Source: Oscillospiraceae bacterium (GTDB lineage: Bacteria > Bacillota > Clostridia > Oscillospirales > Oscillospiraceae). From it: a stretch of 64,000 bases of DNA. Position numbers and translations under genes: made by a program. Below the pieces are notes generated by a model. That model saw only the letters and a program-made list of their open reading frames with translations, was not told the DNA's origin and ran no database searches. Below are positions 1,202-22,546 of this stretch, in pieces. The DNA lies in the NCBI GenBank assembly GCA_963628785.1, contig CAVGGQ010000001.1:23969-87968 (forward strand), given 5' to 3'. Every line of letters starts with the position of its first letter. Within the stretch, counting starts at the first letter, position 1.

Positions 1202-1966
1202 ATGGAGACAAATGCAAAAATCATTGCCGTTTCCGGCAAGGGCGGTGTCGGAAAAACGACACTTGCCGCCGCTATGGTGCGCCACCTGACGGAGTGCAAA
1301 CCGGACGCAAGGATCCTTGCCATCGATGCCGACCCCGCCGTCGGCCTTTCCACCTGCCTCGGCGTGGAAGTGAAGCTCACGCTCGACGAGATCCGCAAGC
1401 AAATTATCGATAATGTAGAAGAGGGCAAAACGAAGGAAGCCATGGAACTCGTGGAAGAATCGCGCTTCCGCATCTTCGATGCTCTTGTGGAAAAGAACGG
1501 CTTTGCGTTCCTCGCCATCGGGCGCCCCGAAGCTGAGGGCTGCTACTGCCGCATCAACGCCTATCTGAAAGACGTCATCACGATGCTCTCCGGCGAGTTT
1601 GATTATGTTGTCATTGACAGTGAAGCCGGCATCGAGCAAATCAACCGCCGCGTGCTCGAGAAAGTCACACATCTTCTGCTTGTATCTGACCAAAGCCGCA
1701 AGGGCATTCAGGTCGCCGGCACCATCAAGCAGGTCGCGGACGAGCTCGTTATGTACAACCACATCGGCGCCGTCATCAACCGCGTGACGAATCCGGATTT
1801 AAATAAGTACATCACCATCCCCGGCGTAGAGATCCTCTCCTATATCGATACGGATGAGTATCATGCCGCCAACGATATTCAGGGCAAGACCGTATATGAT
1901 CTGCCGCCCGAGTCGAGCGTCTACCGCGGAACCAAGGAAATTCTCGAAAAGCTCGACATACTTTAA
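1202..1966 (+). CDS. CooC/AcsF-family P-loop ATPase (MinD/ParA-like metallocentre maturation NTPase)
   Basis: 254 aa. Deviant Walker A IAVSGKGGVGKTT, the AIDADP motif, the C-x-C motif EAEGCYCRINAYL typical of CooC, and DSEAGIEQ. SD AAGAGG lies 8 nt upstream. Confidence 0.8.
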   Translation: METNAKIIAVSGKGGVGKTTLAAAMVRHLTECKPDARILAIDADPAVGLSTCLGVEVKLTLDEIRKQIIDNVEEGKTKEAMELVEESRFRIFDALVEKNGFAFLAIGRPEAEGCYCRINAYLKDVITMLSGEFDYVVIDSEAGIEQINRRVLEKVTHLLLVSDQSRKGIQVAGTIKQVADELVMYNHIGAVINRVTNPDLNKYITIPGVEILSYIDTDEYHAANDIQGKTVYDLPPESSVYRGTKEILEKLDIL

Positions 1967-1998
1967 TTTATTTGCGCAAAACTTTTTCACCATAATAG

Positions 1999-2087
1999 AA
2001 ACCACTAACCATCAAAACCAACCACCAAACCACCAACTACCAACCGCAAACCGCTAAGCAAATCAAGTCAATCCAAACGTCAACAAA
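1999..2087 (+). other. A/C-only, G-depleted intercistronic tract
   Basis: Positions 1999-2045 contain no G and only three T (aaccactaaccatcaaaaccaaccaccaaaccaccaactaccaacc). The A/C-rich character continues to about 2087, just before the GAGGGG SD of the next gene. Confidence 0.9.
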
Positions 2088-2102
2088 AGAGGGGTGTGAC
2101 AT

Positions 2103-3299
2103 TTGAAGGATCTAAAGTATCTGATTTACTTCGAGCAGCTTCTGGATAATGCCGACAACGAACTCGTGAAAAAGGCAGCGGCCGATGGTCAGCTGGCTAT
2201 GGGCTACACATGCTATCATGTACCCGAGCCGATCCTGAACGTCGGAAACTGCTTCTCCGTGCGTCTTCGCGCACCGCACACGGGATCCGTCGACATTGCG
2301 ACATACTACATGTCGAACTACACCTGCGAGTTTGCCCGCGCACTGACCGAGCGCGCCATTGAAGGCGGCTACCAGTTCCTGGACGCCATGATTGGCGTCG
2401 ACGCATGCTCCATGATGAACCGCGCTATGGAGCATTTTGAGATCCTGCAGGTCAACGATAAGCCGAACTTTTTCGTGACCCATGCGGATATTCCTTTCAA
2501 AATCACCGACTATACGCTCGAGTCCTACACGAAGCAGATGCGTCTGCGCGTGCTCGGCAAGATGCATGAGAAGTACGGCGTGGATGTCTCCGACGAGGCA
2601 CTGCGCAAAGCGGTGGAAGAGCACAACGAAGTTTGCCGTATCCTCACCGAGATCGGCGAGCTCCGCAAGATGGAGAACCCGCCCATCACTGGCTACGAGT
2701 ACCACATTCTCAACCTTGTTTCCTACACCTGCCCGAAGGCACTGATCCTTCCGTATCTGCGCGAAACGCTCACGGAGATCAAGAAACGCAAGGTCGACGC
2801 AAAGCCGTGGTACCGCGCCCGCGTGTCCATCGTCGGCAGCGAGATCGACGATCCCATGCTCACCAAGCTCATTGAGAACTGCGGCGCTTTCGTCGTGTCC
2901 GACCGCTACTGCTTCGGCTCCACGCCCGGCCGCGAGGTCATCGAGCTCAACGATACGGACGATGTCCTTACGCAGATCTGCCTGCACTACATGAAGCACT
3001 CCGAGTGCGCACGCTACATTGCCGATGAAAAGGTACAGCAGCGCCGCGACACCGCCGACCGCCTCGCCCACGAATTCGGCGCCGAGGGCATCATCTATGA
3101 GCAGATGAAGTACTGTGACTACTGGGGATTCGAGCGCGCTCTCGTCAGCCACATCATGGCCGAAGAGAAGAACTGGCCCGTGCTCTCCATTGACCGTCTG
3201 TACAATAACGGCAACTCCGGACAGCTGCGCACCCGCGTACAGGCGTTCGTTGAGTCGCTGGAGATCAAGCGCATTCGCAAAGAAGGAGGAAACGGCTGA
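2103..3299 (+). CDS. 2-hydroxyacyl-CoA dehydratase / benzoyl-CoA reductase family, beta (HgdB/BcrC-like) subunit, copy 1
   Basis: 398 aa with a TTG start. Motifs: GYTCYHVPEPIL, GVDACSMM, FVVSDRYCFGS, YCDYW. It is about 50% identical by eye to 6903-8108. Confidence 0.8.
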   Translation: MKDLKYLIYFEQLLDNADNELVKKAAADGQLAMGYTCYHVPEPILNVGNCFSVRLRAPHTGSVDIATYYMSNYTCEFARALTERAIEGGYQFLDAMIGVDACSMMNRAMEHFEILQVNDKPNFFVTHADIPFKITDYTLESYTKQMRLRVLGKMHEKYGVDVSDEALRKAVEEHNEVCRILTEIGELRKMENPPITGYEYHILNLVSYTCPKALILPYLRETLTEIKKRKVDAKPWYRARVSIVGSEIDDPMLTKLIENCGAFVVSDRYCFGSTPGREVIELNDTDDVLTQICLHYMKHSECARYIADEKVQQRRDTADRLAHEFGAEGIIYEQMKYCDYWGFERALVSHIMAEEKNWPVLSIDRLYNNGNSGQLRTRVQAFVESLEIKRIRKEGGNG

Positions 3300-5086
3300 T
3301 GGCAAAAACTCCGAAATATCCCAATCCCAAGTTCTTCCGCGCGAAGGACAATATGGACTGGAAGGCCCAGAGCGAAAACCTCAAAGAGTTCCTCAGCATC
3401 AGCAAGGATCTGATCGCCGAGACCGACTGGAAAGCCTTCGGCAAGCGCCAGCTCAAGGGCTGGGCGGACTTCGGCAAGCGCTTTGCGGAAGAGGCGAAGG
3501 AGGTTGCCGCCATGTCCTGCGAGGAGCGCCGCGAGCTGCTGCTCAAGGGCGAGAAAAAGCTCGGCCGCCTCTATAAGAAGGGCGCCATGGCCACCGTCCG
3601 CCGCGAGTGGCGCGGTATCGGCGACACGGCGTATGACTTCACCGAGTGGCTCCGCATGTGGGGCATGCTCCTCGGCACCTTCTCCAAGGATCTCGTGCCT
3701 GCACTGAACTCCGTTCTTTACTACCGCTGGATGATGTCCTATATGTGCTGTGTCGGATTCATGGACAAGAACACCATGGGTCAGCGCGGCTCGGCTCTCA
3801 AGATGAGCCACCTCATGATCTACGATATTTTCCGCTATGTCGCCGAGAACCTCGTTCTACAGGCGAAGGGCGACGCGAAGAACGGCAATAGCGCCGAGCT
3901 GAACAAGAAGGTCGTTCTCTTCGACGAAATGACGATGGGTCAGCTCATGGCCGGCTTCCCCGACCTCATCGGCATTCCGTACCAGCTTTTTGCCGTGTTC
4001 CTGGTCTCCGAGATCGACCAGCTCACCTGCGTGCCGTATATCGACGCCGTCGAGAGCTTCGGCCTGCCCGCCGACTGCTGCCCGGTGCCGTCCTCCGAGT
4101 GCGGCGCCCTCGTTCTGGACGCTCTGCCGCACATGGGCTCCTGCTTCATCTCAAGCTCCATGCCGTGCGACGGCTCCACGATGGCCTCCTCGTACATGGC
4201 ACGCCGCTTCCCGGATCTCCCGGTGTTCCATCTGTGCTTCCCCGTCCGCTACGAGGACAAAGAGACCGTGCAGTGCGCCGCCGAAGACATCCGCGCCTGC
4301 ATCAAGTTCATTGAAGAGCAGACCGGTGCCAAGTGGAGCTGGGACGCTTACTTCACCGCCATGAAGCGCTTCAACACCGAAACGAGCTACGAGCTAGAAA
4401 AATGGGCCGTCAACCAGACGGCGTACCCGCAGATCATCGGACCGTGCTACGAGCTGTTCCGCAAGTGGAACTACGAGATGGACGGCGGCATTGATCCGCG
4501 TGTGCCGAAGACCTTCAAGAAGGTCAACAGCATCATGCTCAAGGCCTACGAGCGCAAGGAAGAAGCCTGGCCCGGCAAGATGAAATACCGCGCTATCGTG
4601 TGGTCCTGCCCCGCGCACTACTACGCGAACTTCTCCAACTGGCTCGCCAACTGCTGGGGCATCAATGTCCTCGTCGAGATGGAAAGTCTCAACTTCACGA
4701 AGCAGCTCGAGACCGAAGATCCCGAAGAAGCGCTGCGCGATCTCGCCCGTCTGTACGAGCGCATGGTCATGCGCCGTCACACGAACGGCGGCTACCAACA
4801 CGTCGTAGACGAGCTCTGGAAGCAGTGCGAGATCTGGAATGTCGACCTCATCATCATGTATCAGAACGTCGCCTGCAAGAACATGGCCACCGTTCAGGGC
4901 ATTCTCGATGATCAGGCCCGCCAGCAGAACCGCAAGATGATCTGGATTGAGCACGATCTGATGGATCCGCGTACCGTCTCCCGCCGCCAGATGCGCGACA
5001 AGGTGAACGAGTACATGCGCACCGTCATGCACGCCGAACCCGTTGACCCGACCCTCGTCGACTTTGAAGACGAGATCTGCATGTAA
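3299..5086 (+). CDS. 2-hydroxyacyl-CoA dehydratase family, large alpha (HgdA-like) subunit, copy 1, with a long N-terminal extension
   Basis: 595 aa. Its start overlaps the upstream stop (TGATG). Motifs: PADCCPVPSSECGALVLD, SSSMPCDGSTMAS, IVWSCPAHYY. It is a paralogue of 8101-9705. Confidence 0.75.
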   Translation: MAKTPKYPNPKFFRAKDNMDWKAQSENLKEFLSISKDLIAETDWKAFGKRQLKGWADFGKRFAEEAKEVAAMSCEERRELLLKGEKKLGRLYKKGAMATVRREWRGIGDTAYDFTEWLRMWGMLLGTFSKDLVPALNSVLYYRWMMSYMCCVGFMDKNTMGQRGSALKMSHLMIYDIFRYVAENLVLQAKGDAKNGNSAELNKKVVLFDEMTMGQLMAGFPDLIGIPYQLFAVFLVSEIDQLTCVPYIDAVESFGLPADCCPVPSSECGALVLDALPHMGSCFISSSMPCDGSTMASSYMARRFPDLPVFHLCFPVRYEDKETVQCAAEDIRACIKFIEEQTGAKWSWDAYFTAMKRFNTETSYELEKWAVNQTAYPQIIGPCYELFRKWNYEMDGGIDPRVPKTFKKVNSIMLKAYERKEEAWPGKMKYRAIVWSCPAHYYANFSNWLANCWGINVLVEMESLNFTKQLETEDPEEALRDLARLYERMVMRRHTNGGYQHVVDELWKQCEIWNVDLIIMYQNVACKNMATVQGILDDQARQQNRKMIWIEHDLMDPRTVSRRQMRDKVNEYMRTVMHAEPVDPTLVDFEDEICM

Positions 5087-5169
5087 TTAAATAAATGCAT
5101 GGAGCCGCGAAGCATAAGATGCGGCATCGATGAACTAACTTTTGTAACAAATTTTGGAGGGTATATATC

Positions 5170-5976
5170 ATGGCAAAGAAGTATTTCGCTGGGTGCGACG
5201 TAGGCTCCACCTATACCAAGGCCGTCATTCTTGACGAACAGGGCAACATCGTAGCCAACACCACCATCAAGAGCAAGATCAACTCCGAAGAATCTGCGAA
5301 GATCGCAATGCAGCAGGTCATCGACCAGGTCTCCGACCTGAGCTCTTCCAAAGATCTCGAGTACCTCATCGGCACCGGCTACGGCCGCAACAAGGTTCCC
5401 TTTGCTGACGAAAACATCTCTGAGATCAGCTGCCACGCCATGGGCGTGCACGTGACCGACCCCTCCGTAAAGGCCATCATCGATATCGGCGGCCAGGACG
5501 TTAAGGGCATCAGCATCGACACCGACGGCACCGTGAAGAACTTCGCGATGAACGATAAGTGCGCCGCCGGTACCGGCCGCTTCTACGAGGCCATGGCCCG
5601 TTCCTTCGAGATGGATCTTACCCAGTTCTCCAACCTCTCCCTGACCGCAAAGAACGTTATCCCCATCACCGCCCAGTGCACCGTGTTTGCCGAGTCCGAG
5701 GTCATCACGCTCGTCGGCGAGGGCAAGCCCATGGACGAGATCGCGGCCGGCATCCAGATGGCCGTTGCCAAGCGCTGCTTCGTTATGGCGAAGAAAGCCG
5801 GCGCCACCGACAGCATCACGCTGACCGGCGGCTGCGCGAAGAACGCCGGCCTCAAGCAGGCCATTGAGCACGTCCTCAAGCTGAAGGTCATCGACCTCAA
5901 GACCGACCCGCAGCTCATGGGTGCTCTCGGCGCGGCAGAGTATGCCCGTCAGAAGGGTCTTTCGAAAGGAGTGTAA
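5170..5976 (+). CDS. ATP-dependent activase of the dehydratase family (HgdC/BcrAD_BadFG ASKHA ATPase)
   Basis: 268 aa. Motifs: CDVGSTYTKAVI, DIGGQDVK, NDKCAAGTGRF and AQCTVFAESEV (the two cluster cysteines), and LTGGCAKN. SD GGAGGG is present. Confidence 0.9.
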   Translation: MAKKYFAGCDVGSTYTKAVILDEQGNIVANTTIKSKINSEESAKIAMQQVIDQVSDLSSSKDLEYLIGTGYGRNKVPFADENISEISCHAMGVHVTDPSVKAIIDIGGQDVKGISIDTDGTVKNFAMNDKCAAGTGRFYEAMARSFEMDLTQFSNLSLTAKNVIPITAQCTVFAESEVITLVGEGKPMDEIAAGIQMAVAKRCFVMAKKAGATDSITLTGGCAKNAGLKQAIEHVLKLKVIDLKTDPQLMGALGAAEYARQKGLSKGV

Positions 5977-5982
5977 TTCCCA

Positions 5983-6150
5983 ATGAAGAAATTCTGGAAA
6001 GTTTTCGGCAAAATCGCTGGCATCCTGACGGCGGTCATCGGAATCCTGTTCGTTGTGTATTTCTGGAATCTTGACCAGAAGCTGCTCTCCTGGGCTTACA
6101 CTGCGGTGAATAAGATCTTCGATCGCAAGAAGACGGACATTAAGTTCTGA
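5983..6150 (+). CDS. 55-aa single-TM peptide, below the ORF-track cutoff; paralogue of 9724-9915
   Basis: My own translation: MKKFWKVFGKIAGILTAVIGILFVVYFWNLDQKLLSWAYTAVNKIFDRKKTDIKF. An AAAGGAG SD lies upstream, and the stop overlaps the next start (TGATG). It shares the KVFGKIA-IL..LF-V-YF-LD-KLL motif with the 63-aa ORF. Confidence 0.65.
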   Translation: MKKFWKVFGKIAGILTAVIGILFVVYFWNLDQKLLSWAYTAVNKIFDRKKTDIKF

Positions 6151-6878
6151 TGGAGCTTTTCAACAGCTGCATTCACGAATCGGAGGAGCTGCTCCGCGGC
6201 TCCTCTCCGGAAAAATGGGCGTACGATTTGTCGGCGTGCTGGAAGGAAACGGACAGAAACGAACTCGTTATGCTGCGCGAAGCCGCCTTTGAACTCGGCG
6301 GCAGCGCGAAAAGCGCTGTATCCTACAGCTGCTTCACGACCGATGAGCGCCTTGTCGGCAGCGACGAGGTGTGGCTGTACGGCCCGGACCTTTCGGAGAT
6401 CAAAGGTGACTGCGCATTCGCGCGCATTGTTCTCTTTTCCATACAGGATGTCGGGGAAGAGGATGAGGCATACCGTGCGCTGCAGGACATTGAATTCGTA
6501 AAATACCATGTGTTCCCCAAAGGATACATGATCCGCGCCCTCTCCGAGGACAACCGCGAGCAGGTGCGCGTAAGCAAAGATGCCGTCCGAGCCGGGATCT
6601 CCTTCAAGAATGTCGGCTTTGACTACATCCGCAAATTCCGCGAAAAGGAAAATGTTCGCTCCGTCCGCGTGATGTTTGTCACCGAACCGAAAGCGGATTA
6701 TGCGTCACTTCGGACGCTGGCGCGCAAGGTGAACGACATTACCCGTTCCTTGAGCACCATTTTAGACGGCATCCCCACCGACTGCGACTCGTGCGGTCTG
6801 CGCGAGATCTGCGATGAGGTGGAAGGTATGCGCGAGCTTCACTTCCAAAAGGCGGGCAAGAACACCGCCGAAAAATAA
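6150..6878 (+). CDS. Stand-alone protein resembling the middle domain of acetyl-CoA synthase (AcsB/CdhC), ending just after a C-x2-C-x5-C motif
   Basis: 242 aa. The stretch EQVRVSKDAVRAGISFKNVGFDYIRKFREK..VRVMFVTEP matches the remembered ACS/CdhC stretch W-x-RVSKDAVAKGFRFKNYGE..VQVTIFTD. The C-terminal TDCDSCGLREIC sits where ACS has the first A-cluster cysteines. Confidence 0.6.
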   Translation: MELFNSCIHESEELLRGSSPEKWAYDLSACWKETDRNELVMLREAAFELGGSAKSAVSYSCFTTDERLVGSDEVWLYGPDLSEIKGDCAFARIVLFSIQDVGEEDEAYRALQDIEFVKYHVFPKGYMIRALSEDNREQVRVSKDAVRAGISFKNVGFDYIRKFREKENVRSVRVMFVTEPKADYASLRTLARKVNDITRSLSTILDGIPTDCDSCGLREICDEVEGMRELHFQKAGKNTAEK

Positions 6879-6902
6879 CAAAGTATCTACGGAGGAAGCC
6901 CC

Positions 6903-8108
6903 ATGCGTGATTTGAAAAATGTCATCTTCTATGATGACCTGCTGCAGGAGGCCTATAACTCTCTTGTACGTCAGGCAAAAGAAGAAGGCAAATATGCCCT
7001 CGGCTATACTTGCTACTTTATGCCGGAAGTCCTTCTCGATCTGCCCGGCTGCTTCAGCGTACGCCTTCGTGCGCCGCGCTGCACCTCGCCCGATATGGCG
7101 ACCTACTACATGTCCGGCCGCGTGTGCCACTATGCGCGCAGCCTTTTGGAGCGCGCTCTCGAAGGCGGCTACAACTTCATCGACGCCCAGCTCGGCACCG
7201 AGACCTGCACCGGCACCTGCCGCTTCCAGGAGCACCTTGGCGAGTTGCCCGACCTCATTCAGAATGAGAAATTCTTCGTCTCTTTCACCGATGTGCCCTT
7301 CAAGAAGAATCAGAACAGCGTAGAACACTTCACCACTACGCTGCAGGTGCATGTGCTCGACGAACTGCACAACCACTTCGGCATTGATGTGTCCGACGAA
7401 GCTCTCTTCAAGGCCATCGAGGAGCACAACGAGGTCTGCGACATCATCACCCAGATCGGTGATTTCCGCAAGCTCGACAACCCGACCATCACCGGCACGG
7501 AGTTCCACACCATCAACCTCGTGTCGATGGTCTGCCCGAAGTACCTTATTCTCCCGTACCTTCGCGAGACGCTCAAAGACCTCAAGACGCGCGAGCCCGA
7601 CAAGAAGCCCGATTACCGCGTCAAAGTCGTCCTCGCCGGATCAGAAAACGACGACCCCGGCTTCACGAAGCTTATCGAGAGCTGCGGCGCTCTCGTCGTG
7701 GCCGACCGTCACTGCTACGGTTCTCTGCCCGGACGCGAGAAGATCGAAGTGCGCGAAGGCGAAAAGCCCCTCACTGCTATCGCCCACCACTATCTCGAAA
7801 CGAGCGTTTGCCCGCGCTTCATGGAGCAGTCCTCCATGCGCAGCCGCAAGCAGTACATCGTCGACATCGCCAAGGAATACAAGGCCGACGGCATCATCGT
7901 GGAATCCAACAAGTTCTGCGAGTACTGGAGCTACGAGCGCGTGGCGGATACGCTCATCCTGCCGCGTGACTTCGGCATCCCCGTGTGCTCCATTGAGAAG
8001 GAGTACATCAACTCCGCCTCCGGTCAGCTCCGCACCCGCTTCCAGGCGTTTGTGGAGAGTCTGGAGATCAAGAAGATCCAGGAGAAGGAGGGCGTGAAGA
8101 ATGGATAA
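6903..8108 (+). CDS. 2-hydroxyacyl-CoA dehydratase family beta (HgdB-like) subunit, copy 2
   Basis: 401 aa. Motifs: GYTCYFMPEVLL, GTETCTGTC, LVVADRHCYGS, FCEYW. The C-terminal QLRTRFQAFVESLEIKKI is almost identical to copy 1. Confidence 0.8.
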   Translation: MRDLKNVIFYDDLLQEAYNSLVRQAKEEGKYALGYTCYFMPEVLLDLPGCFSVRLRAPRCTSPDMATYYMSGRVCHYARSLLERALEGGYNFIDAQLGTETCTGTCRFQEHLGELPDLIQNEKFFVSFTDVPFKKNQNSVEHFTTTLQVHVLDELHNHFGIDVSDEALFKAIEEHNEVCDIITQIGDFRKLDNPTITGTEFHTINLVSMVCPKYLILPYLRETLKDLKTREPDKKPDYRVKVVLAGSENDDPGFTKLIESCGALVVADRHCYGSLPGREKIEVREGEKPLTAIAHHYLETSVCPRFMEQSSMRSRKQYIVDIAKEYKADGIIVESNKFCEYWSYERVADTLILPRDFGIPVCSIEKEYINSASGQLRTRFQAFVESLEIKKIQEKEGVKNG

Positions 8109-9705
8109 GGCCAAAATGAAGAAAGCCCTGAAAGATTTCTGGTACGGCAAGCCGCACGGTGAACGCCGCCTCGGCGACATCATGCTCGACAAGACCGGCC
8201 TCTATAAGCACCGCGAGTGGCGCGGCGTGAAGGACACCTTCTACTACTTCAACAACATTTGGCTCTACAACTACGGCCAGATGATCGCCGACATTCTCAA
8301 GAGCGAAGACCCCATCGCCTTCTTCAAGGGCGTTTGGCGTTACCGCTGGGTCGGCCAGACCTATCTCCCCGTGCTGCACTGGTTTGACCGCGGCTTGCAG
8401 GGCCTCCGCGGCGACGCGCTTCGCGCCTCTGCGTGGCACTACCGTGCGATGGTCTGCGTGACCATTCAGCAGTTCCAGCGCATGTTCGCTGCCGACGCAA
8501 AGCTCAACGGCGGCAAGCACAATGACTACTATGAGCACACCATGGCGCACAAAGAGACCGTCTGGGGCGGCATCTTCTATCCGTGGTCCGACAAGTTCAA
8601 GAACGTTCCTCTGGAAATGATCCCGTACTTTGTCACCTGCCATGTGAATAGCCACACCGTGCTCAACTACATCGATGCCGTGCAGTCCATCGGCCTCCCG
8701 GGCGACCCCTGCCCGATGTGCCAGGCCGAGGCCGGCATCTTCGTCCTCGACGATGTGCCCGATTATTCGCCTCTCTTCGTAACATCCAACGAAGCGTGCG
8801 ACGCGTCCGTCGCGAGCACCGCTCTGCAGGACTGGTTCTTCGATAAGCCGCTCTACGCCATGCCGCAGCCGATGCAGTTTGACGATCCCATCGTCAAGAA
8901 GTACTGCGCCAAGGAGATCGAGGGCGCCTGGAAGTTCATCGAAGAGCAGACCGGCGTTCCGTTCAACTGGGATCTTCTCGTCAAGCGTGTCGAGGCTCAG
9001 AACGAGCTTCAGCGCTTCGAGTGGGAGAAGTGGGATGTGGCCGCCAACACCGATTACTATCCCATCAACGGCGTTGCGCAGGCTCTCTACCGCATCTATC
9101 AGTCTCAGTACGGCGACAACTACATCTGGCACGAGGTCGACGCGCGTGTCCGCAAGATCATGGAGCGCTGCGTGCAGAACAAGAACATCACGTTCCCTAA
9201 TACCCGCCACCGCGTCATTGCATGGTCGTGCGCACCGCTTTATTACTCCAACTGGTGCACATGGGCGTACAACTGCTGGGGTCTCAATGTTGTTATCAAC
9301 ATGGACTCCCTCATGTTCGACATGACCATCCGTACCGACAACTACGAAGACTGCCTCGAGGATATCGCCCAGTACCACATGTGGGCTCCGATGCGCCGTA
9401 TGGCCGTCGGCGGCATGCAGCACTTCTTCGAGCTGTGGAAGTACATGGAACGTTTCAACTGCGACATGGTCGCCATGTATGATCAGCTCCAGTGCAAGGG
9501 CGCGCAGGGCATGCACGGCGTCTTTGAGGACGAGTTCCGCAAGCGCAACATCCATGCCTTCTGGATTCCGCACGCGCTGCCCGACTGCCGCACCGTTTCC
9601 CGCGCGGAGATCCGCCGCATCATCAATGATTACATGACCACCGTCATGCACGAAGAACCGCTCGATCCGTCGCTCCTCGATTTTGACGACTCCATGAGCT
9701 GGTAA
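8101..9705 (+). CDS. 2-hydroxyacyl-CoA dehydratase family alpha (HgdA-like) subunit, copy 2
   Basis: 534 aa, with an 8-nt overlap onto the upstream gene. Motifs: PGDPCPMCQAEAGIFVLD, TSNEACDASVAST, IAWSCAPLYY, and a REWRGVKDTFYYF N-terminal motif shared with copy 1. Confidence 0.75.
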   Translation: MDKAKMKKALKDFWYGKPHGERRLGDIMLDKTGLYKHREWRGVKDTFYYFNNIWLYNYGQMIADILKSEDPIAFFKGVWRYRWVGQTYLPVLHWFDRGLQGLRGDALRASAWHYRAMVCVTIQQFQRMFAADAKLNGGKHNDYYEHTMAHKETVWGGIFYPWSDKFKNVPLEMIPYFVTCHVNSHTVLNYIDAVQSIGLPGDPCPMCQAEAGIFVLDDVPDYSPLFVTSNEACDASVASTALQDWFFDKPLYAMPQPMQFDDPIVKKYCAKEIEGAWKFIEEQTGVPFNWDLLVKRVEAQNELQRFEWEKWDVAANTDYYPINGVAQALYRIYQSQYGDNYIWHEVDARVRKIMERCVQNKNITFPNTRHRVIAWSCAPLYYSNWCTWAYNCWGLNVVINMDSLMFDMTIRTDNYEDCLEDIAQYHMWAPMRRMAVGGMQHFFELWKYMERFNCDMVAMYDQLQCKGAQGMHGVFEDEFRKRNIHAFWIPHALPDCRTVSRAEIRRIINDYMTTVMHEEPLDPSLLDFDDSMSW

Positions 9706-9723
9706 TGAGGGAGGAAGAAAGAA

Positions 9724-9915
9724 ATGCGTAAAGTTCTGAAAGTATTCGGCAAGATCGCCGCTATTCTGGCCGGCATCTATGCTCTGCTGTTCGCAGTGTT
9801 CTACTTCGACCTCGACGGCAAGCTGCTCTACTATGTCGTAGAGCCGTTCCTCGTAAAGCACTACGACAATATGCCCCGCGAAGACGTCACCAAGCGAGCC
9901 TACAAAATCAAGTAA
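9724..9915 (+). CDS. 63-aa single-TM peptide, paralogue of 5983-6150
   Basis: MRKVLKVFGKIAAILAGIYALLFAVFYFDLDGKLLYY.. A GAGGGAGG SD lies upstream. It sits directly after the alpha-2 gene. Confidence 0.65.
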   Translation: MRKVLKVFGKIAAILAGIYALLFAVFYFDLDGKLLYYVVEPFLVKHYDNMPREDVTKRAYKIK

Positions 9916-9921
9916 ATTTAA

Positions 9922-10080
9922 GGCAACACCGCACAATGTCGTCTGCGGCGCTTTGCGGATCTTTTTCGCCGACTCTGCGTCATCAAGCCTTGCCATACAC
10001 AAAGTATGGCTGCGGCTATCTTCCTTGATTCGACGAATAATCTTTCGCAAATCGCACTTGCCGAATTATGCGGTGTTGCC
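9922..10080 (+). repeat. MITE-like intergenic repeat, copy A (long form, about 159 bp) with 16-bp imperfect terminal inverted repeats
   Basis: The left end is GGCAACACCGCACAATGTCGTCTGCGGCGCTTT and the right end is AAATCGCACTTGCCGAATTATGCGGTGTTGCC. It aligns end to end with 54837-54996 and shares the centre CCTTGC-ATACACAAAGTAT-GCTGCG. Confidence 0.8.
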
Positions 10081-10096
10081 TAAAGCCAATCAATAC

Positions 10097-10136
10097 CAAA
10101 AGCGGCGCAGTCCCAACCGACTGCGCCGCTTGTTTC
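10097..10136. terminator. Bidirectional rho-independent terminator
   Basis: Stem GCGGCGCAGT (10102-10111) pairs with ACTGCGCCGC (10120-10129). It is flanked by AAAA on the left and TTGTTT on the right, between convergent operons. Confidence 0.7.
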
Positions 10137-14055: not shown

Positions 14056-15255
14056 ATGGGAACGATCGATTTAGCGTATCTCTGCACGACCATCGGCAAC
14101 CTCTCCGGCGTGCCGGTACGCATTTTCGAAGGGGAGCGGCAGACATTTTTTTATTCGCAGTGTACCCTGCCGCGCGACCCGATAAACATATGCCGCGATA
14201 AGATTTTTGCCGTTTCCTCGCATATCGGGTATGTAACGACGAGCCGCTTCCATTACTACGGCATAATAAACTCCGGCAATACAAAAGTCGTCATAGGACC
14301 GACCCGCCAGATCGCCGAGACCGACCAGGAGCTGCGCGAGCTTGCTTTTCGCATCGATGTGCCGCCCGACGAAATACCGCAATTCATTTCCGGCATGAAA
14401 GGCATCATGCGAATGCCCATCGAGAGTATCCTGCAGGTCTTGTGCACCATGAACCATGTGCTCAACGGCGAGAAGCTTTCCCTCAAAGACATCGCCATCC
14501 ACGAGACCGAGCAGGAAAAGCTCATCGCTTTGCAGACGAGAGAACAGGTGGAGCAGATGCTTTCAGCCCTGAAGGATGAATACGCAGGTTTACATAATAC
14601 ATACGATATCGAGCAAACCATCCTGCGCATCGTGCGAAAAGGGGATACAGCTGCGCTTCGTGAATGGGAAGCGCATGCACCGGCCCTTCGCGGCGGCGTG
14701 CTGGCGGAAGAAACGCTTCGCCAGAGAAAGAATACCTTCATCGTTATGGCTACGCTCGTCTGCCGCGCCGCCATCCGCGGCGGAATGGATGTGGACGATG
14801 CCTTCTCTTACAGCGATTCTTATATCCGTGAGTGCGAGCGCCTCTCCTTGCCGAATGACATCACGAATCTCTAATACCGCATGGTGCTCGATTATACCGA
14901 GCGAGTGGAACGCCTGTAGCCCGGCAAGCAGCCCTCGAAGCTGACGATCGATGTGACGAATTATATTCGGCACCACCTCTCCGAGGCCATCACGGCCGAG
15001 CGGATCGCAGATGAGCGTTATCTGAGCCGCCCGTACCTTTCCCGCAAATTTAAGGAGGAGACCGGCGAGACGCTGACGGATTTCATTCTGAAAGAAAAAA
15101 CGGAGGAAGCCAAGCGCCTCCTCCGCTATTCGGAAAAATCCGTGACCGCCATCAGCTCGTATCTCGGCTTTTCCTCGCCGAGCCACTTCTCCCGTGTATT
15201 TAAAAAATACGCCGCGCGCACTCCGCAGGAGTACCGCGAAAAATACGAAGTATAG
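14056..15255 (+). pseudogene. AraC-family regulator interrupted by two in-frame stop codons
   Basis: The track ORFs 13918-14874 and 14953-15255 are in the same frame. Stops are TAA at 14872-14874 and TAG at 14917-14919 (..ITNL*YRMVLDYTERVERL*PGKQ..). The C-terminal HTH (SRPYLSRKFKEETG..SSYLGFSSPSHFSRVFKKY) lies after the stops. A GGGAGA SD precedes the ATG at 14056. Confidence 0.75.
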
Positions 15256-18528: not shown

Positions 18529-20409
18529 TTATCTTACATCGTAGATGGTGATGCCGCCGGAGGAAAAGATGACCGGGTAGTTTGCATCCAAATACTCCGT
18601 GATGACGCCGGTTAGGGCGCGCTCGTAATAGCCGATGTAGACAAAGTCGATGTTCTCACTCCCGCGGTTTGCTTCAAATACCCCGGCATCGGTGAGCATA
18701 CGGTCGGCGAGCTGCTGCTTGTCCGCATAATTCAGACCGTGATAATAGAGATAGGAGGCACTGCCGCACTCAATGTTTCGGCCGGTCAGCGTCGCTACGG
18801 CGTTGTCGTGGTTATCCTCCGTCAGGAATTTCGCGTCCGGTTCGGTGTTTTCCAGAATGTACTCCGCCGCTGCGACTTCGTCCGCGGAGAATAGCTCATA
18901 GCCATAGCGCGTTGTGCCGGACGCAGCTTCGCGTACGAGCGTAAACACTCCGGCATTGGAGGAGAGGAAGAGCGCAATGGCGAGCACAATGCTGCGCGCA
19001 GAAGCGCTTTCCAACTTCGAGAGCCAGGCACAGAGCGCATCGGCGCAAACGAAGCACGCGAAAGCGTAGGCAATATAGAGGAGCTTGTTGTTGTCATATA
19101 CATTCGGTTGGAAAACGACGATCTCGCACAGCACAAAAAAAAATATCGCACCCGAGAACGCTGCGCGCTGCTTGCGGGAGACAGAGAAAAAGGCAAACGG
19201 CGTCAGCACGAAAATAAACCCGACATTTTTCACCCAGAACCACAGCCACGGATACTGCCCGTTGTTCACCCAGTCGATGACGATGCGCAGAAAATGGTCG
19301 TTGCCGCCGACGGAACGGAGCGTCCAGATCAAAAGCTGCGGCACGGCCAGCAGCACGGCGGGAAGCCCGAAGCGGAGCCAGCCGGAGAGCCAATGCCAAG
19401 TGAGCTTATCGCGGATGGCGGAATATACGAGCCAGCTTGCCGCCATGAGGCCGAGCGCAAAATAAGAGTGCGTGTGTACCATCGGCAGAAGCCCACCGAG
19501 AATACCCGCAGGTAGGTAAAGACGCGTGTCACCGCGAAACACCGCGCGGAACAGGAGATACAAAACCGCAAAGAGCGCCGCCCAGCCGAAGAGCGTGGCG
19601 CGCTGCGGGAGCAGCATGTCGGCAATGACATTCACCCAGCGCATGCCTTTTTCGGTGAGGTTCGTCGGCGTTTTGTAAAAGCCGGAAATGAGGTCGGAGA
19701 ACGAATAATCCCCGTTCAGAAAATAGATCATGCCGAGCCCGCCGTTCAGGAAAAAGAAGAGAAAAGCAAGCACCGGCGCATATTTTCTGCGGCAGAACTC
19801 GCGGGCGAGAAACCACACGCCGCAGAATACCTGCGCAAACGCAAAGAACATCGGGATCATATAAGCCCACCGCAGCGGCGTACCGAGAAGGTAAAGGCTC
19901 GAGGAAACACTGTCACACAGGAATGGATAGCAGATCTGCGTACCCGGCAGGAGATTATACTCCGGCGGGAATGTCTGCTGCTCGGCAATGGATGTGATAA
20001 AGCTTAAGTGCATCGCCATGTCGCCGTAGGTGCACTGCCCGGTATAGAGCGCGCCGTCTGCATTCCGCAGCGTGTGCGAGAGAATAAGCACAACGGCGAG
20101 CACCATGAACGGGACAAAGAGATAGGGGAGAGGTCGGTCAATTTTACCGCTCTCTGCGCACACCGCACGCTCCCGCTTTGGATAGACCCACAGCACCTGC
20201 ACTGCAAGACCAATCATGGCAGCGCAAATGTGCGCTGCCGTTCCGAAACCCCACAGGAAGGCGAACGGCACCGGCACCCACATGGAAAGGAGCGTCCCCA
20301 TAACGCTGCCGAGCCAAAGCCGGACGGCAAGCCGCTTTTCCGGGAAAATGCGCTGCGAGATCGCCTCGCCCGCGCTCTGCCAAAGCATAAACAAAAGAAC
20401 TCCGAGCAT
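18529..20409 (-). CDS. Large polytopic membrane protein, probable GT-C-fold glycosyltransferase, with a C-terminal extracytoplasmic domain
   Basis: About 626 aa with 12 or more hydrophobic helices, then a roughly 150-aa soluble C-terminus. I prefer the ATG at 20409 (MLGVLLFMLW, AAGAGG SD) because a TATAAT box overlaps the track start. The family call is inference only. Confidence 0.5.
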   Translation of the reverse strand: MLGVLLFMLWQSAGEAISQRIFPEKRLAVRLWLGSVMGTLLSMWVPVPFAFLWGFGTAAHICAAMIGLAVQVLWVYPKRERAVCAESGKIDRPLPYLFVPFMVLAVVLILSHTLRNADGALYTGQCTYGDMAMHLSFITSIAEQQTFPPEYNLLPGTQICYPFLCDSVSSSLYLLGTPLRWAYMIPMFFAFAQVFCGVWFLAREFCRRKYAPVLAFLFFFLNGGLGMIYFLNGDYSFSDLISGFYKTPTNLTEKGMRWVNVIADMLLPQRATLFGWAALFAVLYLLFRAVFRGDTRLYLPAGILGGLLPMVHTHSYFALGLMAASWLVYSAIRDKLTWHWLSGWLRFGLPAVLLAVPQLLIWTLRSVGGNDHFLRIVIDWVNNGQYPWLWFWVKNVGFIFVLTPFAFFSVSRKQRAAFSGAIFFFVLCEIVVFQPNVYDNNKLLYIAYAFACFVCADALCAWLSKLESASARSIVLAIALFLSSNAGVFTLVREAASGTTRYGYELFSADEVAAAEYILENTEPDAKFLTEDNHDNAVATLTGRNIECGSASYLYYHGLNYADKQQLADRMLTDAGVFEANRGSENIDFVYIGYYERALTGVITEYLDANYPVIFSSGGITIYDVR

Positions 20410-20443
20410 GGATCGAAAACCTCTTACTGAAAAATACAAATGT

Positions 20444-20495
20444 ATTATAATCGGTCAACGTCTTATTTGCAATAGCAGACCAAGTATGATAAAAT
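20444..20495. promoter_or_regulatory. Back-to-back divergent promoters sharing one palindromic -35 hexamer
   Basis: Plus strand: TTGCAA (20467-20472), 17 nt, TAAAAT (20490-20495). Minus strand: the same TTGCAA read in reverse, 17 nt (20466-20450), TATAAT (20449-20444). Confidence 0.5.
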
Positions 20496-20533
20496 AAACA
20501 GGCAATTTAAAAATCCCGATAGGGGGCTTTTCA

Positions 20534-22546
20534 TTGAAACGATCCCAATTGCGACAGGCAATGATTTTCCTTCTCGCCGCATTGCTCCTCTGCTCCGGTG
20601 TTTTTGCGGCCGGGTCACTCATTGATAATGCGGATTTCTCCGGTACGGATATTCCGGAAGGCTGGGACATCACGGCCTATTCCGACTCCGACTATTCCGT
20701 TTACACGGAAGACGGTGCGCTCGTGATCGAAGCAAATACGGAGAACGATGTGCGCCTGTGCCAAATGGTCAAGGTAAAGCCGAACACCGCCTATAAGCTG
20801 ACGGCGGAGATCGCCGCGCAGAATGTAAGCGGCGGGCGCGGCGTGTGCCTTGCCGTGGATAACTACATGCTTGACGGCACCTACGCCGTCGGCAACGGCA
20901 AGCTCGGCGGTTTCGACTGGACGGAAGGATCGCTCATCGTCCGCACCGGCTCCGACCAGACATACATCAACATCGCGCTCCGCCTCGGAAGCTACAGCGA
21001 GATGTCCTCCGGCAAAGCGTATTTCCGCTCGGTGGAGCTCACAAAGTGCTCGGGCGTCGAGGCTGCCTCGGCCGTTTTTCTCGAGAACACGGCACAGGAA
21101 CGGTCTTCTCAGACAAACGAGGAGAGCGATGAGGCGCGCACAATCCGCCTCAAGTCCTATCTGCACCTTTTCATCGTTTGCTCCGTCGTCCTCTCCTGCG
21201 TCTTCCTTTGGGGCTTCTACCGCAATCGCAATACCTTCTACTCTGTCCCTGCAGAGAAAAAGACGGTACGGCGCTGCTTTGCCCTGCTGATCCTCGTCGG
21301 CCTGCTCCTTCGTATGCTTCTCACCATCATCTTCGGCGGACACGACTACGATATGAATTGCTGGATCGCCTGGGGACGTGACATTGCTTCCAACGGTACG
21401 GCACAATTCTATACTGCCGCCGGCCATGAGTGGTACGACTACCCGCCCACTTATATGCTCGTCCTTGCACTTATCACGCATATCCTGAATTTTCTGCACA
21501 TTTCCGCAAACACGGGTGCGGGCATATTTGCCTTCATGCTCCCTGCGTACATTGCGGATGCCTGCACCGGCGTTGTGCTGATGCATTTGGCCCAGAAACG
21601 CGGCTTCTCGGAGAGCGCGTGCCTGTTCTTAGGTGGAATATGTATCTTCAACCCCGCCGCAGTCATTCTCTCCGGCGCATGGGGACAGATCGATTCGATC
21701 CTGACGCTGCTCCTCCTGCTGAGCTTTTCGGAACTGCTGCAAAACCGTCGGATCTCTGCTGGAGCGATCTACGGCCTTGCCATTATGACGAAGTGGCAGG
21801 CACTTATTTACGGCCCGGTGCTCGCGGCAGCGTATCTTCTTTCCGTTCGCTCCCGGAATGATGCAGTGCGCACACTCGGCGGCGTAGCGGCGGCTGTGGC
21901 CGTGATCCTCGGCGTATCGCTCCCGTTCCACGGTGACCAATGCCTTTTCTGGGTTGTGGAACGATTTCTGCAGTCGGCGGGCGGCTACGACTATGCCAGC
22001 GTGGAAGCCTATAACTTCATGGCGCTCTGCGGCGGCAACTGGACGGCTTCTTCCGATAGCATTTTCCTCGGCATCAGCTACAAAGCCTTTGGTACGGACG
22101 CCATCGTGCTTGCCGTCGGCATCTCCATCGCAATGCTCGTGCGTTCGCGTTGCCGCAAAGGCGCGGATATACTGCAGCGCACACCCGGAACGCTCTACAT
22201 TTCCGCTGCTTTCTGCATGTTTATGATCTTCACATTCGGACACTATATGCACGAGCGCTATGCTTTCCCGGTCATGGCGCTGCTCCTCTTCGGCTATGTT
22301 TGCACGCGCGAGGCGCGGCTTCTCGCCTGTTCCATGCAGCTGAGCGTTGTGCTTGCGCTCAACGAGGCCACAGCCATGTATGTCGTCTCCAACGCTGCGA
22401 CTTCGGCCGTTCGCGGCACGACACAGCACAATGTCGTAGTGGCCGTATGTTCGATTTTCGAGGTGCTGACCTTTGCCTATACGGCGTATGTCTGTCTGCA
22501 GCATCAATTTGCCGACAAAAACGGGGAGGTGGCGCGCGATGCGTAA
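20534..22546 (+). CDS. Membrane glycosyltransferase (GT-C, DUF2029/Gpi18-like) with an N-terminal secreted CBM-like beta-sandwich domain
   Basis: 670 aa with a TTG start and AGGGGG SD. It has a signal peptide and a CBM4/9-like region (NADFSG..WDITAY..VKVKPNTAYKLTAEI..YFRSVEL). About 11 TM helices follow, with GGHDYDMNCWIAWG and WYDYPPTYMLVL. Confidence 0.6.
   Translation: MKRSQLRQAMIFLLAALLLCSGVFAAGSLIDNADFSGTDIPEGWDITAYSDSDYSVYTEDGALVIEANTENDVRLCQMVKVKPNTAYKLTAEIAAQNVSGGRGVCLAVDNYMLDGTYAVGNGKLGGFDWTEGSLIVRTGSDQTYINIALRLGSYSEMSSGKAYFRSVELTKCSGVEAASAVFLENTAQERSSQTNEESDEARTIRLKSYLHLFIVCSVVLSCVFLWGFYRNRNTFYSVPAEKKTVRRCFALLILVGLLLRMLLTIIFGGHDYDMNCWIAWGRDIASNGTAQFYTAAGHEWYDYPPTYMLVLALITHILNFLHISANTGAGIFAFMLPAYIADACTGVVLMHLAQKRGFSESACLFLGGICIFNPAAVILSGAWGQIDSILTLLLLLSFSELLQNRRISAGAIYGLAIMTKWQALIYGPVLAAAYLLSVRSRNDAVRTLGGVAAAVAVILGVSLPFHGDQCLFWVVERFLQSAGGYDYASVEAYNFMALCGGNWTASSDSIFLGISYKAFGTDAIVLAVGISIAMLVRSRCRKGADILQRTPGTLYISAAFCMFMIFTFGHYMHERYAFPVMALLLFGYVCTREARLLACSMQLSVVLALNEATAMYVVSNAATSAVRGTTQHNVVVAVCSIFEVLTFAYTAYVCLQHQFADKNGEVARDA

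Follow-up and report, generated by a model that had tools for sequence, protein, structure and literature searches.

The superfamily of benzoyl-CoA reductases (BCR), 2-hydroxyacyl-CoA dehydratases (HAD) and double-cubane reductases (DCCP) performs some of the most demanding low-potential radical chemistry, and to our knowledge all of its characterised members are soluble enzymes composed of two to four subunits. We know of no small hydrophobic third subunit in the solved complexes BzdNO, MbdONPQ, HadBC and DCCP:DCCP-R, and a full-text search of the literature retrieved no paper on a small membrane component of HGD-D, BCR or DCCP enzymes. Small membrane proteins do accompany other enzymes: OadG, GcdD and MmdD, which have one N-terminal helix and are encoded in the operon of their enzyme, are thought to tie the soluble catalytic subunit of Na+-translocating decarboxylases to the membrane, while proteins of the CydX, KdpF and AcrZ type bind integral membrane complexes. 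The DNA analysed here, a stretch of 64,000 nucleotides from an Oscillospiraceae bacterium (hereafter the window), contains an operon in which two short paralogous ORFs each accompany one catalytic module whose enzymes belong, by fold, to the BCR/HAD/DCCP superfamily, outside its characterised branches.

The operon and its two small reading frames

Positions 1202-9915 of the plus strand form a single, tightly packed operon, in which all genes described below are read in the same direction. The first encodes a CooC/MinD-type ATPase (1202-1966) and is followed by the HGD-D small subunit of module 1 (A1, 2103-3299, 398 aa) and the extended HGD-D large subunit of the same module (B1, 3299-5086, 595 aa), the latter carrying an N-terminal extension with a REWRG motif and an acidic C-terminal tail. 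After a BcrAD/HgdC-type activase (5170-5976) come the first small ORF (copy 1, 5983-6150, 55 aa, of the type here called fam1) and a 242-aa protein resembling a fragment of CdhC/ACS (6150-6878). Module 2 comprises the small subunit A2 (6903-8108, 401 aa) and the extended large subunit B2 (8101-9705, 534 aa), and the second small ORF (copy 2, 9724-9915, 63 aa, fam2) is the last cistron of the operon, with a terminator-like hairpin and T-run 26 nt past its end (9941-9960) and a second, stronger and bidirectional hairpin at 10100-10131. BLASTP of the 2.08-Mb genome assembly revealed no more than two A/B pairs and two small genes, with a single activase homologue. Since the only HGD-D and activase homologues of the genome sit in this operon, both modules apparently share this activase. 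The genome also has two more CooC-like ATPase paralogues (28-33% identity), on contig C11 at 14228-15019 and 20170-20940.

The first-pass annotation had described the small ORFs as paralogues with shared motifs and Shine-Dalgarno (SD) sites, copy 1 being stop/start-coupled to the following gene, and every one of these sequence details proved correct. BLASTP aligns the first 37 residues of the two proteins with 19 identities (51%) and 27 positives (73%) at an E value of 1e-12, and the motifs listed in that annotation are present in both. Copy 1 has a basic N-terminus, a hydrophobic helix at approximately residues 8-27 and the segment NLDQKLL..VN.IFDRKK.DIKF, and copy 2 a basic N-terminus, a hydrophobic helix and the segment FDLDGKLLYYVVEPFL.KHYD.M.R. 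The SD sequence of copy 1, AAAGGAG (5965-5971), lies within the end of the activase gene, 11 nt 5' of the ATG at 5983, while that of copy 2, GAGGGAGGAAG (9707-9717), precedes the ATG at 9724. Both starts are forced because in-frame stops lie closely upstream, namely a TAA two codons before ATG 5983 and a TGA (9706-9708) six codons before ATG 9724. The stop codon of copy 1 overlaps the start of the CdhC-like gene in the sequence TGATG (6148-6152), by which the latter is translationally coupled to copy 1.

B2 ends in the tandem stops TAA TGA (9703-9708), and copy 2 continues in the same reading frame after five sense codons. An in-frame arrangement was likewise found in 22 of 36 distinct pairs of B2-type and small genes, and programmed stop-codon read-through from B2 into copy 2 was therefore considered as a candidate. 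It was rejected in view of the tandem stops and of the closest relatives (L006-L008), in which a 16-nt spacer puts the two genes out of frame; the excess of in-frame pairs is attributed to the modal 15-nt SD spacer and to the counting of related lineages. A 604-residue read-through construct (B2::small2) was nevertheless folded with AF2, using a partly paired alignment of 18 other in-frame loci supplemented with unpaired large subunits. The B2 part of the model was confident (pTM 0.84); pLDDT fell below 50 in the linker and in peptide residues 1-12, and stood at 80-89 in peptide residues 20-59.

A small-protein family with a predicted membrane helix

Single-sequence searches of a public protein collection (NCBI, JGI, ENA and Logan) returned 695 homologous clusters for copy 1 and 281 for copy 2, a profile built from 32 diverse members raised the number to approximately 2,460 clusters at 90% identity, and an exhaustive HMMER search yielded 383 clusters at 50% identity, the best 150 of which were all 42-183 aa long. 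Length is closely kept in fam1, with exactly 55 aa in 98 of 120 representatives. Across orthologous loci, dN/dS amounted to 0.17 for fam1 (40 sequences) and 0.20 for fam2 (22 sequences), with dS saturated, and the entropies at codon positions 1, 2 and 3 were 0.71, 0.51 and 1.31 for fam1 and 0.72, 0.64 and 1.38 for fam2, variability thus following the order 3>1>2. In dN/dS, third-position variability, length and position, the ORFs behave as coding genes under purifying selection, and on these comparative grounds both are almost certainly real genes. A chance ORF or an RNA element is very unlikely in view of an own SD and ATG together with the coding-type selection. The proposal that the peptides are translated accordingly finds strong comparative support in purifying selection, fixed length, SD sites and a position kept in hundreds of species, and a candidate peptide for their detection by proteomics is KLLYYVVEPFLVK. 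The related expectation that copy 1 would be missed by annotation turned out to be wrong, as the exact 55-aa protein has already been called on 27 public contigs, as have the members of the 695 homologous clusters. The protein carries no name on these 27 contigs, and homologues that do have a name in their source are termed 'hypothetical protein'.

No curated family matched the small proteins significantly in Pfam-A or NCBIfam: the best Pfam match was CcmD_alt (E 0.064, below the cut-off), the best NCBIfam matches were PsbL and AmaP (E 0.05-0.07), and hmmscan gave only scattered sub-threshold matches to transmembrane regions. Neither did a profile search of the PDB (best E 1.2) or a Foldseek search with the AF2 model (0 matches) return a solved relative. 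The proteins form an unnamed family with a clear signature, newly defined here. No usable Rosetta-stone fusion was found, the best 150 family representatives all being at most 183 aa long, and the longer members resemble upstream-start artefacts, chimeras or unrelated membrane segments. In one 132-aa public ORF (P0344), a copy-2-type peptide runs from its start to residue 47 and continues, at a shared 'MER', into the C-terminal ~85 residues of a large subunit; a deletion between tandem modules, or a chimera made in assembly, is its probable origin.

The family alignment displays a basic N-terminus with K/R at positions 2, 3, 6 and 10, followed by a hydrophobic stretch of approximately 20 residues, the first half of which is variable. 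A strongly conserved block, (L/T)F-x-(V/I)(Y/F)-x-x-(N/D)(L/G)(D/E)-x-K-(L/F)(L/I/M), is followed by a second conserved segment, which reads ...P(F/L)L-x-K-H-Y-D-x-x-x-R in the copy-2 type and ...W-A-Y-x-x-V-N-x-I-F-D-R-K-K-x-D-I-K-F in the copy-1 type. Conservation is thus best at the C-terminal end of the hydrophobic helix and in the second helix (NLDxKL...P.L.KHYD), with K33 invariant in the 32-sequence alignment. AF2, run on the family alignment, predicted a helix at residues 2-27, a kink at DLDG and another helix at 30-48 (mean pLDDT 88). Maximal Kyte-Doolittle (KD) hydropathy over 19 residues was 2.41 and 2.21 for the two small proteins versus at most 1.5 for all other products of the operon, and the family mean over the 19 residues preceding the NLDxK motif was 2.03. 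With one segment of approximately 19-20 residues of transmembrane-grade hydropathy, as expected of a single-pass protein, the small proteins very probably possess a membrane helix. A cleavable signal peptide was considered and rejected, since the hydrophobic region spans approximately 20 residues and small residues at -3/-1 are missing before DLDG; the segment was treated as a signal-anchor.

In 405 family members, the 15 residues before the helix contain on average 2.9 K+R and 0.1 D+E and the 15 residues after it 1.3 K+R and 1.9 D+E, so that the positive-inside rule favours a cytoplasmic N-terminus in 86-95% of them. In some lineages the N-terminus is genuinely extended, with a perfect SD of its own: L067 has 15 Lys/Arg in 25 residues, and L013 encodes a 90-aa form with a GCCVCRF motif. 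Because the flanking charges favour N-in and such N-termini are not plausibly translocated, the predicted topology is N-in/C-out. This would place the best-conserved region in the outer leaflet and the extracytoplasmic space, and therefore away from the A/B enzyme, which was taken as cytoplasmic on account of its ATP-dependent activase, its Fe-S clusters and the lack of signal peptides. Copy-2-family variants of 90-96 aa occur in L009:10523-10813(-), L013:14292-14564(-), L020:13208-13480(-) and L021:8699-8971(-). Here the N-terminal extension is genuine, with an AGGAGG SD of its own, a Cys cluster (GCCVCRF or GCCACR) and an amphipathic Lys/Leu stretch before the transmembrane helix, and the Cys cluster could be a lipidation or metal site.

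Linkage to the A/B modules and features of the large subunit

The presence of the small gene was assessed in 80 loci from species-representative genomes, which were fetched by alignment to the large subunit and not by the small ORF in order to avoid circularity, the ORFs within them being labelled by BLASTP and HMMs of the small family. At least 550 loci with relatives of the large subunit were found in the species-representative genome collection; the carriers are mostly Oscillospiraceae and other Clostridia from the human gut, the rumen and other animal guts. One cultured carrier, Brotocaccenecus cirricatena CLA-AA-H272 (L016), possesses module 1 genes, the sequence available for it stopping shortly past the large subunit. 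A small-family ORF follows the large subunit in 67 of the 69 modules with at least 1.25 kb of downstream DNA, a count that includes L054 and L063. The first-pass annotation had regarded related genomes devoid of a conserved small ORF at this position as evidence against its proposal, and the comparison revealed the ORF in all but two of these modules. In the two exceptions (L059:9918-10712 and L083:5035-5829), which come from two species, the module-1 operon ends after the activase, and the small gene and the CdhC-like gene are both absent. The small ORF lies directly after B in modules of the module-2 type and of a third, divergent type, and after the activase in module 1.

A second scan covered 80 metagenome loci, with the divergent small-protein sub-type NLDMKLM as query. 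All loci with upstream DNA displayed the order A (~420 aa), B (~536 aa), small gene, their large subunits being 35-38% identical to B2 with the REWRG motif retained. Since loci with large subunits this divergent still have the A-B-small arrangement, the triad appears from sequence comparison to predate the paralogues, each of which retains its own co-diverging small gene. Taken together, the 67 of 69 modules, the divergent loci with upstream DNA and the 2:2 ratio in the genome of the window display an obligate genetic linkage of the small gene to the A/B pair. Among the loci examined, the small gene occurs in no other setting, and it always co-occurs with the REWRG-type N-terminal extension of the large subunit. 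The small protein thus probably acts as a partner specific to the A/B module. No conserved membrane protein or membrane redox partner was found near the small gene in the loci examined.

Some further features of the related loci deserve mention. Approximately half of the public contigs (L005-L084) break off within about 2 kb past the large subunit of module 1, at the activase gene or shortly before it, and because the activase is 85-95% identical between species, these breaks look like assembly collapse on a highly conserved gene. In the relative L001 (10702-11151), the CdhC-like gene is followed by genes for a DUF8180 protein and a homologue of the nickel chaperone CooT, and then by an OYE/Pyr_redox_2 reductase, which strengthens the CODH/ACS-maturation flavour of the operon. 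The divergent A-B-small loci L132:6143-9325 and L137:6537-9320 continue with an Fe-S flavoprotein of 928-1061 aa (Fer4, Fer4_20 and Pyr_redox_2 domains, GltD/NfnB-like), which is likely an NAD(P)H-linked module for the supply of electrons and stands where the operon of the window is adjoined by an OYE-type reductase.

The best sequence match of the large subunit in the PDB had an E value of only 0.002. At the level of fold, B2 resembles BzdO, HadB, MbdO and DCCP, with Foldseek E values of 1e-9 to 1e-11, target-normalised TM scores of 0.68-0.77 and 10-17% identity, and the solved relatives cover approximately 390-446 alignment columns of the 604-residue B2::small2 model. Extended large subunits have approximately 150-245 extra N-terminal residues beyond the Pfam HGD-D model; in B2, this extension (residues 1 to ~145) was predicted to be all-helical and is rich in aromatic residues (AF2 pLDDT ~80-90). 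At the opposite end, an acidic tail, EEPxDPxLxDFDDxxx[W/M/Y], terminates all extended HGD-D large subunits, even those with an identity as low as 35% (L001-L164), and is found at 5041-5086 and 9658-9705 in the window. This acidic tail of the large subunit directly precedes the basic N-terminus of the small protein.

Possible functions and comparison with described systems

The best explanation of these data, which we hold tentatively and at slightly less than even weight, is that the small protein is a dedicated bitopic membrane protein, an anchor or accessory subunit of which each A/B module has its own and which places the enzyme at the membrane. The small gene is the third component of a conserved module that also comprises the HGD-D small subunit and the extended large subunit, and that belongs to an uncharacterised branch of the BCR/HAD/DCCP superfamily. 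In the predicted layout of the protein, a short and basic N-terminus in the cytoplasm leads into a single transmembrane helix, and after a kink at N/D-L-D-x-K comes the second conserved helix, of approximately 20 residues. The protein may keep the ATP-activated Fe-S enzyme of its own module at the inner side of the membrane. Contact might be made by the basic N-terminus, together with the cytoplasmic end of the helix, with the acidic C-terminal tail and the helical N-terminal extension of the large subunit, and such anchoring would fit a substrate that is hydrophobic or delivered by the membrane, or a supply of electrons from the membrane. The first-pass annotation had suggested a tether to the membrane or to a redox partner in it. 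This tether stands as a plausible and leading reading, as the small proteins contain the only membrane-grade segment of the operon and match the modules 1:1; it is weakened by the predicted N-in/C-out orientation, which puts the conserved part outside, and no conserved membrane redox partner was found nearby. That anchoring is the actual function is proposed with greater reserve, and the picture is complicated by a cytoplasmic N-terminus that is short and variable, by the predicted outside position of the conserved region and by the two loci in which the small gene is missing.

An N-in/C-out protein could also be co-expressed with A/B without binding it, its conserved outer helix serving a partner that is encoded elsewhere and lies in the membrane or outside the cytoplasm, for example a transporter for the substrate or product of the enzyme, a redox complex or a sensor. 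The positive-inside analysis does place the conserved NLDxKL...KHYD helix outside, conservation on both faces of this second helix suggests contact with a protein or a ligand, and the position ahead of L-F, in the outer half of the hydrophobic helix, keeps a small residue, a type of feature that favours helix-helix packing. However, the loci contain no conserved membrane protein, and a shared housekeeping partner would poorly explain one co-diverging copy per enzyme paralogue, which leaves this an unlikely alternative to anchoring. The hydrophobic helix might, on the other hand, lie outside the membrane altogether, the peptide being buried as the third subunit in a soluble complex with A and B, where it packs on the aromatic-rich helical N-terminal extension of the large subunit. 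Such packing would account for the strict co-occurrence of the small ORF with the REWRG-type extension, which falls outside the Pfam HGD-D model and is unmatched in the solved relatives, it would allow the conserved region of the peptide to touch the enzyme, and it is in line with the pLDDT of 80-89 kept by residues 20-59 in the fusion model. Yet a segment of 19-20 residues with a mean KD above 2 and a low hydrophobic moment of 0.18-0.24 is transmembrane-like and rare in soluble complexes, and the N-terminal half of the helix varies freely while staying hydrophobic, as lipid-facing helices do; we regard a buried subunit as distinctly unlikely.

The close coupling of copy 1 to the CdhC-like gene raises the question of whether fam1 should be assigned to the CdhC/ACS-fragment-like protein, for example as an anchor for a step of cofactor maturation, rather than to A1/B1. 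In 30 of 38 related loci the two genes overlap or are separated by at most 3 nt. Wherever a CdhC-like gene occurs in the loci examined, fam1 is present as well, and the two loci devoid of fam1 have no CdhC-like gene either. However, fam1 stands without a CdhC-like gene in three loci (L050, L057 and L063), and fam2 and the divergent types have no CdhC-like neighbour. The primary link of copy 1 is therefore to the A/B module, and such a re-assignment is quite improbable, with a secondary role of copy 1 alongside the CdhC-like protein being possible. Finally, the in-frame position of copy 2 behind B2, in the window as in the 22 of 36 pairs, would agree with the ORFs not being independent genes, i.e. 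with chance ORFs, RNA elements or a C-terminal anchor of the large subunit made by read-through. Against the tandem stops, the out-of-frame L006-L008, an SD and ATG for each ORF and coding-type selection, this is hardly credible.

Returning to the anchor reading, a bolder version of it would see the whole branch of ATP-driven Fe-S 'super-reductases/dehydratases' of gut and rumen Clostridia as an enzyme of three obligate subunits (A, B and the bitopic peptide) working at the membrane, in which the conserved transmembrane and outer region binds a membrane-partitioned substrate (lipid, sterol or bile-acid-like) or delivers it to the radical enzyme. We consider this improbable in its full form. 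On the practical side, heterologous expression or purification of these enzymes may fail if the gene of 55-70 aa is left out, and the physiological substrate or electron donor may be membrane-associated.

The closest functional analogy to the small protein is provided by OadG, GcdD and MmdD. The partners of OadG include an integral membrane pump subunit encoded in the operon, whereas the operon of the window encodes no membrane partner, and OAD_gamma (PF04277) was not matched in hmmscan by either protein of the window (E up to 1) or by 32 family members (E up to 0.1). As a conserved single-helix accessory protein of less than 70 aa, the small protein is also reminiscent of CydX, KdpF and AcrZ, from which it differs in that there is no homology and all other products of the operon are soluble. 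The enzymes in turn can be compared with BzdNO/MbdON, HadBC and DCCP (PDB 8s02, 9gai, 3o3m and 6eno), with which the large subunit of the window shares the fold, the Pfam HGD-D domain and an adjacent HgdC-type activase, although identity is limited to 10-17% and the large subunits of the window carry the extra N-terminal residues. One large uncharacterised branch of this superfamily thus carries a dedicated, predicted single-helix membrane protein, one per catalytic module, and should the three-subunit membrane reading be true, it would provide the first membrane-integrated member of the BCR/HAD/DCCP superfamily.
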